Below are positions 3,794-46,226 of a stretch of DNA of 64,000 nucleotides, piece after piece. Position 1 is the stretch's first letter. Every line of letters starts with the position of its first letter. Below the pieces are notes generated by a model. The model was not told where the DNA came from. It searched no databases and worked only from the letters and a program-made list of their open reading frames with translations. The translations under genes and the position numbers were made by a program. The stretch is taken from assembly GCF_058153355.1 (NCBI RefSeq), contig NZ_CM177019.1; one strand, written 5' to 3'.

Positions 3794-4540
3794 ATGTTGC
3801 TTAGCATAATCACTGTCGCGTTTCGTAACCTCGAAGGGATAGTCAAAACACATGCCTCGCTGGCGCATCTGGCGCAGGCGGACGATATCAGCTTCGAATG
3901 GATTGTTGTCGATGGCGGTTCCAACGACGGTACCCGTGAGTATCTGGAAAATCTCAATGGTATCTATAACCTACGCTTTGTCAGCGAGCCAGATAACGGT
4001 ATCTACGACGCCATGAACAAGGGCATTGCGATGGCACAAGGCAAGTTCGCGTTGTTTCTCAACTCGGGCGATATTTTTCATCAGGATGCCGCAAATTTTG
4101 TCCGTAAGTTAAAAATGCAAAAAGATAACATGATGATCACCGGCGATGCGCTGCTGGATTTTGGCGACGGGCATAAAATTAAGCGTAGTGCTAAACCGGG
4201 CTGGTATATTTATCACAGCCTGCCCGCCAGTCATCAGGCGATATTTTTCCCGGTATCCGGTTTGAAAAAATGGCGTTATGACCTGGAATATAAAGTTTCT
4301 TCTGATTACGCGCTGGCAGCTAAAATGTATAAAGCAGGTTATGCATTTAAAAAACTCAATGGCCTGGTGTCTGAATTTTCCATGGGTGGGGTATCAACCA
4401 CCAATAATATGGAATTGTGTGCTGACGCGAAAAAAGTCCAACGGCAGATATTACATGTGCCTGGCTTCTGGGCAGAATTATCCTGGCATTTACGCCAGCG
4501 TACTACCTCAAAGACGAAAGCCTTATATAACAAAAGCTGA
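3794..4540 (+). CDS. wcaE: colanic acid biosynthesis glycosyltransferase (GT2)
   Basis: 248-aa ORF with GT2 motifs ([10 protein letters not shown]); conserved cluster position. Confidence 0.85.
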
Positions 4541-10361: not shown

Positions 10362-10461
<100 letters not shown>

Positions 10462-10553
10462 GCAATGAATGCGAAACCGCGGTGTAAATAACGACAAAAA
10501 TAAAATTGGCCGCTTCGGTCAGGGCCAACTATTGCCTGAAAAAGGGTAACGAC

Positions 10554-13455: not shown

Positions 13456-14934
13456 ATGAGCTTACGTGAAAAAACCATCAGCGGCGCGAAGTGGTCGGCG
13501 ATTGCCACGGTGATCATCATCGGCCTCGGGCTAGTGCAGATGACCGTGCTGGCGCGGATTATCGACAATCACCAGTTCGGCCTGCTGACCGTGTCGCTGG
13601 TGATCATCGCGCTGGCAGATACGCTTTCTGACTTCGGTATCGCTAGCTCGATTATTCAGCGAAAAGAAATCAGTCACCTTGAACTCACCACGTTGTACTG
13701 GCTGAACGTCGGGCTGGGGATCGTGGTGTGCGTGGCGGTGTTTTTGTTGAGTGATCTCATCGGCGACGTGCTGAATAACCCGGACCTGGCACCGTTGATT
13801 AAAACATTGTCGTTGGCGTTTGTGGTGATCCCCCACGGGCAACAGTTTCGCGCGTTGATGCAGAAGGAGCTGGAGTTCAACAAAATCGGCATGATCGAAA
13901 CCAGCGCGGTGCTGGCAGGCTTCACTTTTACGGTGGTTAGCGCCCATTTCTGGCCGCTGGCGATGACCGCGATCCTCGGTTATCTGGTCAATAGTGCAGT
14001 AAGAACGCTGCTGTTTGGCTACTTTGGTCGAAAAATTTATCGCCCCGGTCTGCATTTCTCGCTGGCGTCGGTGGCACCAAACTTACGTTTTGGTGCCTGG
14101 CTGACGGCGGACAGCATCATCAACTATCTCAATACCAACCTTTCAACGCTGGTGCTGGCGCGTATTCTCGGCGCGGGCGTGGCAGGGGGATACAACCTGG
14201 CGTACAACGTGGCCGTTGTGCCGCCGATGAAACTGAACCCAATCATCACCCGCGTGTTGTTTCCGGCATTTGCCAAAATTCAGGACGACACCGAAAAGCT
14301 GCGCGTCAACTTCTACAAGCTGCTGTCGGTGGTGGGGATTATCAACTTTCCGGCGCTGCTGGGGCTGATGGTGGTGTCGAATAACTTTGTACCGCTGGTC
14401 TTTGGTGAGAAGTGGAACAGCATTATTCCGGTGCTGCAATTGCTGTGTGTGGTGGGGCTACTGCGCTCAGTGGGTAACCCGATTGGTTCGCTACTGATGG
14501 CGAAAGCGCGGGTCGATATCAGCTTTAAATTCAACGTATTCAAAACATTTCTGTTTATTCCGGCGATTGTTATTGGTGGGCAGATGGCGGGCGCAATCGG
14601 CGTCACGCTCGGTTTCCTGCTGGTGCAGATTATCAACACCATTCTGAGTTACTTCGTGATGATTAAACCGGTGCTCGGTTCCAGTTATCGCCAGTACATC
14701 CTGAGTTTGTGGCTGCCGTTTTATCTCTCGTTGCCGACGCTGGGGGTCAGTTATGCGCTGGGCATTGTGCTGAAAGGGCAACTGGCGCTGGGGATGCTGC
14801 TGGCGGTGCAAATAGCCGCGGGCGTGCTGGCGTTTGTGGTGATGATTGTGCTGTCGCGCCATCCGCTGGTGGTGGAAGTGAAGCGCCAGTTTTGTCGCAG
14901 CGAAAAAATGAAAATGCTTTTACGGGCGGGGTGA
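13456..14934 (+). CDS. wzxC: colanic acid repeat-unit flippase (Wzx family)
   Basis: 492-aa polytopic membrane ORF directly after wcaJ. Confidence 0.85.
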   Translation: MSLREKTISGAKWSAIATVIIIGLGLVQMTVLARIIDNHQFGLLTVSLVIIALADTLSDFGIASSIIQRKEISHLELTTLYWLNVGLGIVVCVAVFLLSDLIGDVLNNPDLAPLIKTLSLAFVVIPHGQQFRALMQKELEFNKIGMIETSAVLAGFTFTVVSAHFWPLAMTAILGYLVNSAVRTLLFGYFGRKIYRPGLHFSLASVAPNLRFGAWLTADSIINYLNTNLSTLVLARILGAGVAGGYNLAYNVAVVPPMKLNPIITRVLFPAFAKIQDDTEKLRVNFYKLLSVVGIINFPALLGLMVVSNNFVPLVFGEKWNSIIPVLQLLCVVGLLRSVGNPIGSLLMAKARVDISFKFNVFKTFLFIPAIVIGGQMAGAIGVTLGFLLVQIINTILSYFVMIKPVLGSSYRQYILSLWLPFYLSLPTLGVSYALGIVLKGQLALGMLLAVQIAAGVLAFVVMIVLSRHPLVVEVKRQFCRSEKMKMLLRAG

Positions 14935-14963
14935 GTTGTTGTTTTCGGTTCCGACAACGGTTG

Positions 14964-15250
14964 CCGGGTGCAGCGTAAAACGCCTTATCCGTCCTACGGT
15001 TCTGTGCTCGGGACCTGTAGGCCTGATAAGACGCGTCAGCGTCGCATCAGGCACTGAATGCCGGATGCGGCGTGAACGCCTTATCCGTCCTACGGTTCTG
15101 TGCTCGGGACCTGTAGGCCTGATAAGACGCGTCAGCGTCGCATCAGGCACTGAATGCCGGATGCGGCGTGAACGCCTTATCCGGCCTACGGTTCTGTGCT
15201 CGGGTCTTGTAGGCCTGATAAGACGCGCCAGCGTCGCATCAGGCAAAAAG
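14964..15250. repeat. tandem array of about three 96-bp REP/BIME units
   Basis: Unit gccggatgcggcgtgaacgccttatccg(t/g)cctacggttctgtgctcggg(a/t)c(c/t)tgtaggcctgataagacgcg(t/c)cagcgtcgcatcaggc repeats with 96-bp period (starts 15060 and 15156, partial copy before). Confidence 0.8.
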
Positions 15251-15305
15251 CGGCAACGAAAAAAACAAACGCAGCCTCACCTGGCATCAAATTTATGAGG
15301 AAAAA

Positions 15306-16586
15306 ATGAAATTACTTATTCTGGGCAACCACACTTGCGGCAATCGTGGCGACAGCGCCATCCTGCGCGGCTTACTTGATGCCATCAACATTCTCAATCC
15401 ACACGCCGAAGTGGATGTGATGAGCCGCTATCCGGTCAGTTCTTCCTGGCTGCTCAACCGCCCGGTAATGGGCGATCCGCTGTTCCTGCAAATGAAACAA
15501 CACAACAGCGCAGCGGGCGTTGTCGGGCGCGTTAAAAAAGTCCTCCGTCGCCGCTACCAGCATCAGGTACTGCTCTCGCGCGTCACCGACACTGGCAAGT
15601 TGCGTAATATCGCCATCGCCCAGGGATTCACTGACTTCGTGCGCCTGCTGTCAGGTTACGACGCCATTATTCAGGTCGGCGGATCGTTTTTTGTCGATCT
15701 CTACGGCGTGCCACAGTTTGAACATGCACTTTGCACGTTTATGGCGAAAAAGCCGCTGTTTATGATTGGTCACAGCGTTGGCCCGTTCCAGGATGAGCAA
15801 TTTAACCAACTGGCGAACTATGTCTTTGGTCGCTGTGACGCGCTGATCCTGCGCGAATCGGTCAGCCTTGATCTGATGAAACGCAGCAATATCACCACTG
15901 CAAAAGTTGAACATGGCGTCGATACCGCGTGGCTGGTCGATCACCACACAGAAGACTTCACCGCCAGCTATGCCGTTCAACACTGGCTGGACGTTGCCGC
16001 ACAACAGAAAACGGTAGCCATTACCCTGCGCGAACTGGCACCGTTCGACAAACGTCTCGGCACCACTCAGCAAGCGTATGAAAAAGCCTTTGCCGGGGTG
16101 GTCAATCGCATTCTCGACGAAGGGTATCAGGTGATTGCGCTCTCCACCTGTACGGGCATCGACAGCTATAACAAAGACGACCGCATGGTGGCGCTCAATC
16201 TGCGCCAGCACATCAGCGATCCTGCCCGTTATCACGTGGTGATGGATGAACTCAACGATCTGGAAATGGGCAAAATTCTCGGTGCCTGTGAACTCACCGT
16301 CGGTACGCGCCTGCACTCCGCCATTATCTCAATGAACTTTGCCACCCCGGCGATTGCCATCAACTATGAACATAAATCCGCCGGGATCATGCAGCAGCTG
16401 GGGCTGCCAGAGATGGCAATTGATATCCGTCATTTATTAGACGGCAGCCTGCAAGCGATGGTTGCGGATACCTTAGGCCAACTTCCGGCGCTGAACGCAC
16501 GACTTAATGAAGCTGTCAGTCGTGAGCGTCATACAGGAATGCAGATGGTGCAATCTGTGCTTGAACGCATCGGGGAGGTGAAATGA
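15306..16586 (+). CDS. wcaK: colanic acid biosynthesis pyruvyl transferase
   Basis: 426-aa ORF in the expected position and length. Confidence 0.85.
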   Translation: MKLLILGNHTCGNRGDSAILRGLLDAINILNPHAEVDVMSRYPVSSSWLLNRPVMGDPLFLQMKQHNSAAGVVGRVKKVLRRRYQHQVLLSRVTDTGKLRNIAIAQGFTDFVRLLSGYDAIIQVGGSFFVDLYGVPQFEHALCTFMAKKPLFMIGHSVGPFQDEQFNQLANYVFGRCDALILRESVSLDLMKRSNITTAKVEHGVDTAWLVDHHTEDFTASYAVQHWLDVAAQQKTVAITLRELAPFDKRLGTTQQAYEKAFAGVVNRILDEGYQVIALSTCTGIDSYNKDDRMVALNLRQHISDPARYHVVMDELNDLEMGKILGACELTVGTRLHSAIISMNFATPAIAINYEHKSAGIMQQLGLPEMAIDIRHLLDGSLQAMVADTLGQLPALNARLNEAVSRERHTGMQMVQSVLERIGEVK

Positions 16587-21746: not shown

Positions 21747-21785
21747 TAGTGTACTGGTAGCTGTGGAGCCAGGGGCGGTAGCGTG
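21747..21785 (+). promoter_or_regulatory. JUMPstart element containing ops (GGCGGTAG), RfaH-dependent antitermination site
   Basis: tagtgtactggtagctgtggagccaggggcggtagcgtg matches the 39-bp JUMPstart consensus; ops GGCGGTAG at 21774-21781; about 60 bp upstream of the first O-antigen gene. Confidence 0.8.
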
Positions 21786-43097: not shown

Positions 43098-43145
43098 TTT
43101 CTTATTCCTCTTTAAACCTGTCTGAACCGTTAACAACCGCGCAAT

Positions 43146-43182
43146 AAAAAAGCCCCCGGAAGGTGATCTTCCGGGGGCTTTC
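43146..43182 (-). terminator. his attenuator terminator hairpin
   Basis: On the - strand: gaaagcccccggaagatcaccttccgggggctttttt between hisL and hisG. Confidence 0.8.
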
Positions 43183-43242
43183 TCATGCGTTCATGCACCA
43201 CTGGAAGATCTGAATGTCTTCCAGCACACATCGCCTGAAAGA

Positions 43243-43293
43243 CTAGTCAGTATGATGGTGATGATGGTGGTGTTTAAATTGAACGCGTGTCAT
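43243..43293 (-). CDS. hisL: his operon leader peptide
   Basis: 16-codon ORF on the - strand, MTRVQFKHHHHHHHTD, with seven consecutive His codons just upstream of the attenuator. Confidence 0.9.
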   Translation of the reverse strand: MTRVQFKHHHHHHHTD

Positions 43294-45960: not shown

Positions 45961-46226
45961 AGAAAAATTATTATGACAAGCCTCTCATTCTCTTGTCATT
46001 TCCCCCCCATTTAGGCACAATGCGCCGCTGTCAAAAAATGACTAAAAACCGACGTTTAATTAGCGTCGGTTATTTTTTGCTTCAAACCAATCATTCATAC
46101 CAAGAGGCCGGGCTTCGTACCGGATAGATATTTACTAAAAATCGACAGTTGTTGTCGCTGAGGAATCCAAAAAAATGGGGCAATTTTTTGCTTACGCGAC
46201 GGTTATCACCGTAAAGGAGAATGACC

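Follow-up and report, generated by a model that had tools for sequence, protein, structure and literature searches.

A three-unit BIME-2 array between wzxC and wcaK in the colanic acid operon and its unit-wise variation among Escherichia coli strains

BIME-2 elements are described as 'composed of z2 and y', 'occur as multiple tandem copies', carry a short S linker and vary in copy number between strains, and BIME-1 elements, made of z1 and y, are single, with a long L linker that is often an IHF-binding site (Ton-Hoang et al. 2012, PMC3333891). On DNA, gyrase cleavage is enriched in BIME-2, prefers Y REPs and is transcription-independent, with cleavage sites in BIME-2 increasing when transcription is blocked, and only a subset of BIME-2 elements is cleaved in vivo (PMC6379681). 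On RNA, REP325, the naRNA4 locus between yjdM and yjdN for which Qian et al. 2015 is also cited, protects upstream mRNA (~3-fold at its native locus), lowers the downstream gene ~10-fold, gives rise to hairpin-ended transcripts that form a ladder, and shows partial Rho dependence only when all 12 hairpins of the array are present (Harris et al. 2026 preprint). The same preprint reports that REP-separated tandem gene pairs are biased to upstream expression genome-wide, and its introduction describes REP effects as context-dependent, with reporter insertions often showing no stabilisation. The intercistronic REPs of malE-malF and hisJ-hisQ are cited for blocking 3'-exonucleases to the benefit of the upstream gene (Newbury et al. 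1987; Stern et al. 1988), and a translational mechanism, stalling, is described as needing a REP no more than 15 nt past the stop codon (Liang, Rudd & Deutscher 2015, as cited in PMC12306157). For the junction studied here, E. coli K-12 MG1655 has an element named REP144 (2118467-2118652), listed as the 'Tandem' pair wzxC/wcaK in the supplement of Harris et al., and REP insertions and deletions, together with a break in sequence similarity, have been reported in the exact wcaK-wzxC gap (Iguchi et al. 2011, PMC3158064).

We analyzed a 64,000-nucleotide stretch of contig NZ_CM177019.1 (assembly GCF_058153355.1), hereafter the window, in which a REP array lies inside the wca (colanic acid) operon. 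This operon is under RcsAB/RfaH control. RfaH was found on wza-wcaM in strain CFT073 by ChIP (PMC9765446), and an ops element (GGCGGTAGCGTG) lies ~180 bp upstream of wza in E. coli VL7S7, the closest record to the window. The array is wholly extragenic, sitting in a 371-bp gap between the wzxC stop (position 14934) and the wcaK start (15306). The flanking plus-strand ORFs, at 13456-14934 (492 aa) and 15306-16586 (426 aa, ATG at 15306), carry the annotations WzxC (colanic acid flippase) and WcaK (pyruvyl transferase) in all RefSeq relatives inspected. The left flank of the array (14935-14962), which follows the wzxC TGA at 14932-14934, includes CGACAACG at 14952-14959, and the A-rich right flank (15245-15305) includes CGGCAACG at 15251-15258 as well as a ribosome-binding site for wcaK, GAGG, at 15296-15299.

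The claim of the sequence-only reading that the gap holds three near-identical units with 96-bp periodicity was borne out by Tandem Repeats Finder, which returned one tandem array at 14962-15245 (period 96, 2.9 copies, 95% matches, 0 indels, score 510). A Hamming scan combined with explicit pattern parsing resolved this array into three tandem units of 96-97 bp with six REPs, spanning 14963-15244 and thus within a few bases of the 14964-15250 originally given, and every unit holds two REPs in inverted orientation, the convergent pair of the earlier description. A repeat search placed in-register copies at 14979-15074, 15075-15170 and 15171-15266; the second shows 100% identity with the first and the third only 77%, because it runs past the array end (~15244) into unique sequence. 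The exact repetition of 192 bp rules out a chance origin.

Each unit is composed of a plus-strand Y REP, a 19-nt tail-to-tail linker, an inverted Z2 REP and a 7-nt head-to-head linker (34 + 19 + 36 + 7 = 96). The Y-type REP reads GCCGGATGCGGCGTGAACGCCTTATCCG[G/T]CCTAC on the plus strand and the inverted Z2-type REP reads GTAGGCCTGATAAGACGCG[T/C]CAGCGTCGCATCAGGC, so that Y REPs end in CTAC and inverted Z2 REPs start with GTAG, in strict alternation over the three units. The first unit opens with a degenerate, 35-nt Y' REP with one extra loop base (14963-14997, plus strand; RNA hairpin of -10.5 kcal/mol), which is followed by the tail-to-tail linker GGTTCTGTGCTCGGGACCT (14998-15016), an inverted Z2 REP on the minus strand (15017-15052, GTAG foot at 15017, 1 mismatch, -20.5 kcal/mol) and the S-type head-to-head linker ACTGAAT (15053-15059), all linkers being given on the plus strand. 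The second unit has a plus-strand Y REP with 1 mismatch to consensus (15060-15093, -14.8 kcal/mol), a tail-to-tail linker of the same sequence as the first (15094-15112), a minus-strand Z2 REP identical to the 15017-15052 copy (15113-15148) and again ACTGAAT (15149-15155). In the third, a plus-strand Y REP (15156-15189, -21.3 kcal/mol) and a minus-strand Z2 REP (15209-15244, -20.5 kcal/mol), both with 0 mismatches to consensus, flank the linker variant GGTTCTGTGCTCGGGTCTT, which ends in GGGTCTT (15190-15208).

The REPs were scanned with consensus strings for Y (34 nt) and Z2 (36 nt). Five of the six match with 0-1 mismatches and the sixth, Y', is Y with one inserted base; as an identity check, the REPs of the array also aligned with Y/Z2 REPs at other places in the genome. 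Support independent of these consensus strings came from Rfam, where the naRNA4 model (RF02564), a Y-Z2 pair from REP325, matched the minus strand at 15116-15186 and 15020-15090 above its gathering score of 59.5 (79.7 and 72.9 bits), whereas the plus, operon-sense strand scored 55.4 and 49 bits, below that threshold. The array matches naRNA4 because the RF02564 model is itself a BIME-2 unit, and any BIME-2 would match. Both lines of evidence uphold the original identification of REP/BIME units. Alternating inverted Y and Z2 REPs, tandem copies, an extragenic site and a strain-variable number are all common to the array and the BIME-2 family, the 7-nt ACTGAAT is the short S and not the long L type of head-to-head linker, and nothing substantive separates the array from this family. 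Judged on these features, it is a BIME-2 array, a member of a known family. BIME-1 or RIP/RIB elements resemble the array only in having REPs of inverted orientation, and membership in this IHF-binding group was rejected: there is no match to a Z1 REP in the array at up to 8 mismatches, no L linker, and no match in the array to the IHF consensus WATCAANNNNTTR, which occurs 4 times elsewhere in the 64-kb window. IHF binding, named together with gyrase in the earlier description, belongs to the L linker of BIME-1 and was therefore dropped. With the array placed in BIME-2, binding and cleavage by gyrase, not IHF binding, would be the DNA-level property expected from its class.

The K-12 element REP144 has its orthologous position, flanks, Y/Z2 units and linkers in common with the array. 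The MG1655 RefSeq record has no REP feature annotated in the wzxC-wcaK region. REP144 has two units in a 275-bp gap, whereas the window array has three in 371 bp, the extra unit duplicating the adjacent 96 bp exactly; two positions of the first Y REP also distinguish the two elements (GCCGGGTGCAGCG against GCCGGATGCGGCG). By position and composition, the array is thus a three-unit allele of the element named REP144 in K-12. The exact 96-bp duplication in the window allele points to a recent event, by slippage, unequal recombination or a TnpA(REP)-type process.

The window and VL7S7 differ by 1 base across 421 bp around the array. This sole difference, T in the window against G in VL7S7 at position 15088, falls within the middle Y REP, in its foot (CCGTCC against CCGGCC), and the T makes units 1 and 2 of the window identical across 192 bp; gene conversion between units, or duplication in another register, could account for it. 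The wcaE gene is split by an IS1A insertion in VL7S7, and in the window (3794-4540) its ORF of 248 aa is intact, so that the colanic acid cluster of the window looks intact at this gene and the window is distinct from VL7S7. A second BIME, a single Y-Z2 pair, lies in the cpsB-cpsG gap of the window at 10383-10463, with a Y REP at 10383-10416 (2 mismatches), an 11-nt linker and an inverted Z2 REP at 10428-10463 (1 mismatch), and is directly followed by a strong match to the 'algC RNA' motif (10500-10549; Rfam RF02929, 76.6 bits) that precedes cpsG, the phosphomannomutase gene. Further along, a JUMPstart/ops element precedes the O-antigen cluster at 21747-21785 (Rfam RF01707, 54.7 bits; GGCGGTAGCGTG at 21774-21785), and the gene after it is annotated in VL7S7 as an O-antigen flippase of the O124/O164 family. 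Matches to the histidine operon leader (43144-43267, minus strand; RF00514, 126.6 bits) and to the enterobacterial sRNA STnc240 (46006-46080, plus strand; RF02074, 69.3 bits) fit the chromosomal surroundings that are usual for the wca, O-antigen and his genes.

Two ORFs run across the array, one antisense (14920-15246, minus strand, 108 aa, TTG start) and one sense (14936-15298, plus strand, 120 aa), and both contain a peptide with a period of 32 residues. That both are open across the whole array could suggest a real repeat protein, but 96 bp equal 32 codons, so a reading frame without a stop in one unit has none in the others either, and the antisense ORF starts with TTG. Neither ORF matched a Pfam family above cut-off, no CDS is annotated over the array in any RefSeq relative inspected, and ORF length changes with unit number, the ORFs being absent from REP-free strains. 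With no family match, annotation or repeat-independent conservation, a protein-coding gene was rejected, and we consider that either ORF encodes a real repeat protein to be extremely improbable. By all these signs both ORFs are artefacts, frame-preserving translations of the 96-bp repeat, in agreement with the sequence-only reading, which took the antisense ORF for a translation of the array, and neither should be annotated.

We sought to determine how the number of units varies among E. coli strains. Since REP matches saturated the initial BLAST search, a REP-free query made of 350 bp of each flank was used, and both flanks were found in 4,661 of 5,426 complete E. coli genomes, from which an evenly spaced sample of 59 was analyzed. 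The gap ranged from 71 to 662 bp in this sample, which corresponds to 0-6 units. Gaps of 275 bp, which include the K-12 lineage, were the most frequent (19 genomes); other gaps with whole units measured 179 bp (8 genomes, including O157:H7), 563-566 bp (7 genomes), 468 bp (5 genomes, including ST131), 371-372 bp (4 genomes, including the window's relative) and 661-662 bp (2 genomes). Six genomes had a REP-free gap of 71-72 bp, five had a gap of 161 bp with an unrelated BoxC-like sequence (seen in ST69), and gaps of 145 bp (2 genomes) and 167 bp (1 genome) were microhomology deletions inside a single unit. Parsing of one representative per gap class yielded alleles with 0, 1, 2, 3, 4, 5 and 6 Y-Z2 units. 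Thus, units are gained and lost one by one between strains, and the strain-variable copy number that had been predicted from the single sequence is confirmed. Four 3-unit alleles from different lineages differ in their middle units, indicating that the same length was reached by different histories. Within sampled clonal groups the number was constant, at 2 in the K-12 lineage, 1 in the O157:H7-size genomes and 4 in the block with ST131; array length is therefore a lineage marker rather than a hypermutable tract.

A wider comparison was made with a degenerate DNA pattern for the WcaK N-terminus, which retrieved 120 loci from species-representative genomes, 73 of them with wzxC followed by wcaK. 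In 48 of these 73 Enterobacteriaceae loci less than 50 bp, most often 13-30 bp, separate the two genes, with little between them beyond a ribosome-binding site (TTTAAGAGGTCATT); from these sequences, such a short gap is likely the ancestral state. The gaps of the other 25 loci measure 56-185 bp and contain small repeats or other sequence. REP pairs that are not of the E. coli type are present in Citrobacter amalonaticus, a Citrobacter MAG and a Kluyvera-like genome, Salmonella arizonae has a single REP-like hairpin, BoxC-like elements occur in at least nine species (many Enterobacter, Lelliottia, Kosakonia and Buttiauxella species), and one gap (locus L037) has an ERIC-like element. Across the Enterobacteriaceae, at least four repeat families unrelated to one another (Y/Z2 BIMEs, other REP pairs, BoxC-like and ERIC-like elements) have thus come to occupy the gap independently. 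The E. coli array would then have arisen by insertion into a gap repeatedly taken over by small repeats, and the wzxC-wcaK junction looks like a recurrent landing pad for them. One could go further and regard the junction as a selected 'slot' for structured RNA, with the E. coli unit number (0-6) as a heritable expression dial, in which case the number of units would determine the balance between early colanic acid functions (wza...wzxC) and late ones (wcaK/L/M, for pyruvylation and finishing); we consider this quite unlikely.

In filled E. coli alleles the array is bracketed by an imperfect 8-bp direct repeat, the copies CGACAACG and CGGCAACG of the left and right flanks, and the 71-bp REP-free allele has a single copy, CGGCAAT, at the corresponding point. 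This repeat could be an insertion scar resembling a target duplication or the product of a microhomology deletion. A longer direct repeat (14902-14926 against 15300-15324, 80% identical) was rejected as a duplication scar. It pairs two conserved coding ends, the 3' end of wzxC and the start of wcaK, and the WzxC C-terminus, EKMKxLLRAG, is kept in all 45 of the Enterobacteriaceae loci printed, including those with spacers of 13-30 bp, which makes the resemblance a coincidence. An inverted repeat (14708-14736 and 15251-15279, 76% complementary, 514 nt apart) was treated as chance. A rearranged junction was seen in Escherichia sp. MOD1-EC7003 (locus L081, 4248-5057), in which a wza fragment runs directly into the final 146 codons of wzc, and a REP array of 369 bp, not wzxC, stands before wcaK. 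This array has the same right end, on the wcaK-proximal side, as the window array, so that wcaA...wzxC appear to have been lost with the junction inside REP sequences.

As RNA, the 386-nt array region is predicted to fold with -193.9 kcal/mol, compared with -137.8 +/- 5.6 kcal/mol for shuffled sequences (z = -9.95), whereas the REP-free 71-bp E. coli spacer has no significant structure (z = -0.71). Single REP hairpins range from -10.5 to -21.3 kcal/mol, and in an alternative fold a Y-linker-Z2 segment forms one 89-nt hairpin of -52.8 kcal/mol. No intrinsic terminator, that is, no hairpin followed by a U-tract, was found on either strand in 14500-15700, the sense strand after the last Z2 REP reading AAAAAGCGG, and no sigma-70-like promoter was found on either strand of the same interval. 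An intrinsic terminator and an internal wcaK promoter in the gap were therefore rejected; wcaK, which retains its own ribosome-binding site, is expected to rely on read-through, with the array co-transcribed in the operon mRNA. The first REP follows the wzxC stop codon by 28 nt, compared with the limit of 15 nt for translation-regulating REPs, so the array was not counted among these, and the stalling mechanism of Liang et al. is not expected to operate here.

Our combined findings suggest that the element is a non-coding BIME-2 array in the 3'UTR of wzxC, with effects on mRNA and gyrase to be anticipated by analogy, and dispensable for colanic acid synthesis; we regard this overall reading as likely. 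Once transcribed, the array would form six stable hairpins or, as an alternative, three long Y:Z2 ones. Such structures may impede 3'-to-5' exonucleases and so stabilise the upstream wza...wzxC mRNA, and may partly reduce read-through into, or survival of, the downstream wcaK-wcaL-wcaM segment, such that the number of units would set a modest ratio of upstream to downstream expression. On DNA, the Y REPs would serve as transcription-independent gyrase cleavage sites. The roles of mRNA stabiliser and partial terminator, both raised by the sequence-only reading, are plausible by analogy with REP325, which likewise has alternating Z2 and Y REPs between two co-oriented genes of one operon. The data on stabilisation and partial Rho-dependent attenuation belong to REP325 only, which has 12 hairpins, whereas the array has 6 and lies inside a long, RfaH-controlled polysaccharide operon. 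By this comparison, a 6-hairpin array would be mainly a 3'-exonuclease barrier and a weak attenuator, with a strength that scales with unit number. The REPs of malE-malF and hisJ-hisQ are, as cited, single REPs or pairs with experimental support, whereas the role of the array is a predicted one. In K-12 RNA-seq the baseMean is 36 for wzxC and 91 for wcaK (table of Harris et al.), values that are not upstream-biased and that come from a near-silent, uninduced operon. About 10% of the sampled E. coli genomes are REP-free and 48 of 73 species loci have a gap below 50 bp, hence any regulatory effect is not required; likewise, the existence of natural alleles that lack REPs makes the element dispensable for the pathway.

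Several other explanations bear on the same observations. A serious rival, which partly overlaps with the explanation preferred here and which we consider possible though somewhat less than evenly so, is that the array is neutral, selfish repeat DNA that proliferating REPs/BIMEs left by accident at one of the operon's few junctions where genes do not overlap, with a copy number that drifts by slippage or unequal recombination and no selected effect on colanic acid expression. The coexistence of 0- to 6-unit alleles with microhomology deletions (145 and 167 bp) and a 161-bp BoxC-type allele is in keeping with such drift, as are 3-unit alleles that reached one length with different middle units, the presence of REPs in other gaps of the operon (cpsB-cpsG at 10383-10463 of the window; wzc-wcaA in VL7S7) and the gap in other species, which holds other repeat families or stays at 13-30 bp. 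Nonetheless, a side effect on mRNA is compatible with neutrality, considering the ~3-10-fold effects of REP325 at its native locus, and the constancy of unit number within sampled clonal groups argues against a hypermutable array. That the array works chiefly at the DNA level, where a strong gyrase site and/or a recombination junction would shape topology and horizontal exchange around the O-antigen/colanic acid region, seems to us a lesser possibility. It draws on the over-representation of gyrase sites in BIME-2 and their preference for Y REPs (PMC6379681), on the similarity break point at the wcaK-wzxC REPs (Iguchi et al. 2011, PMC3158064) and on the MOD1-EC7003 array that joins a truncated wza'-'wzc to wcaK. 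However, only a subset of BIME-2 is cleaved in vivo and neither wzxC nor wcaK has an entry in those supplementary tables of Sutormin 2018 on gyrase cleavage that were searched; the association with recombination is anecdotal, and REP-free alleles are viable.

That the array is mainly a Rho-dependent transcription attenuator limiting wcaK-wcaL-wcaM would agree with its having no intrinsic terminator and with a C>G stretch (C/G 1.87) at ~15326-15405, at the start of wcaK, and BIMEs as well as REP325 do attenuate partly through Rho (Harris et al. 2026 preprint). Yet the array itself has a C/G of 0.93, REP325 constructs with 2-4 hairpins were insensitive to bicyclomycin, only the 12-hairpin array being sensitive, and the sole Rho-binding peak listed by REP144 in the Harris supplement is antisense and overlaps the element by 1 bp. 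Moreover, WcaK, WcaL and WcaM serve the same polymer, so strong termination before them would be counter-productive, and the operon, whose leader carries an ops element, is among the targets of RfaH. RfaH antagonises Rho/NusG. A Rho-dependent component at an operon that recruits it is therefore expected to be small, and we hold the attenuator to be unlikely as the main function. Far less probable still is that the array encodes minus-strand, naRNA4-like nucleoid-associated RNAs that act with HU to condense the chromosome. The two RF02564 matches above the gathering score do lie on the minus strand, but the model is simply a Y-Z2 pair that any BIME-2 matches, the operon-sense strand stays below threshold, no promoter-like site was found on either strand, and REP325 and its naRNAs had no effect on nucleoid volume or REP-REP contacts (Harris et al. 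2026 preprint, with Adhya as co-author).

Taken as a whole, the array is an ordinary one, the BIME-2 class, REP144, BIME copy-number variation and REP insertions and deletions at this exact gap having all been published, and from its sequence it is not a BIME-1/IHF element, an intrinsic terminator, a stop-proximal translational REP or a gene. What remains mildly interesting is that several repeat families, unrelated to each other, have colonised one and the same operon junction across the Enterobacteriaceae and that, in the cryptic Escherichia genome MOD1-EC7003, wcaA...wzxC was lost at a REP array. The gap is also a convenient length marker, being constant within sampled clonal groups and ranging from 71 to 662 bp between lineages, and its natural alleles with 0 to 6 units are a ready series for testing BIME dosage in a long, RfaH-dependent polysaccharide operon.
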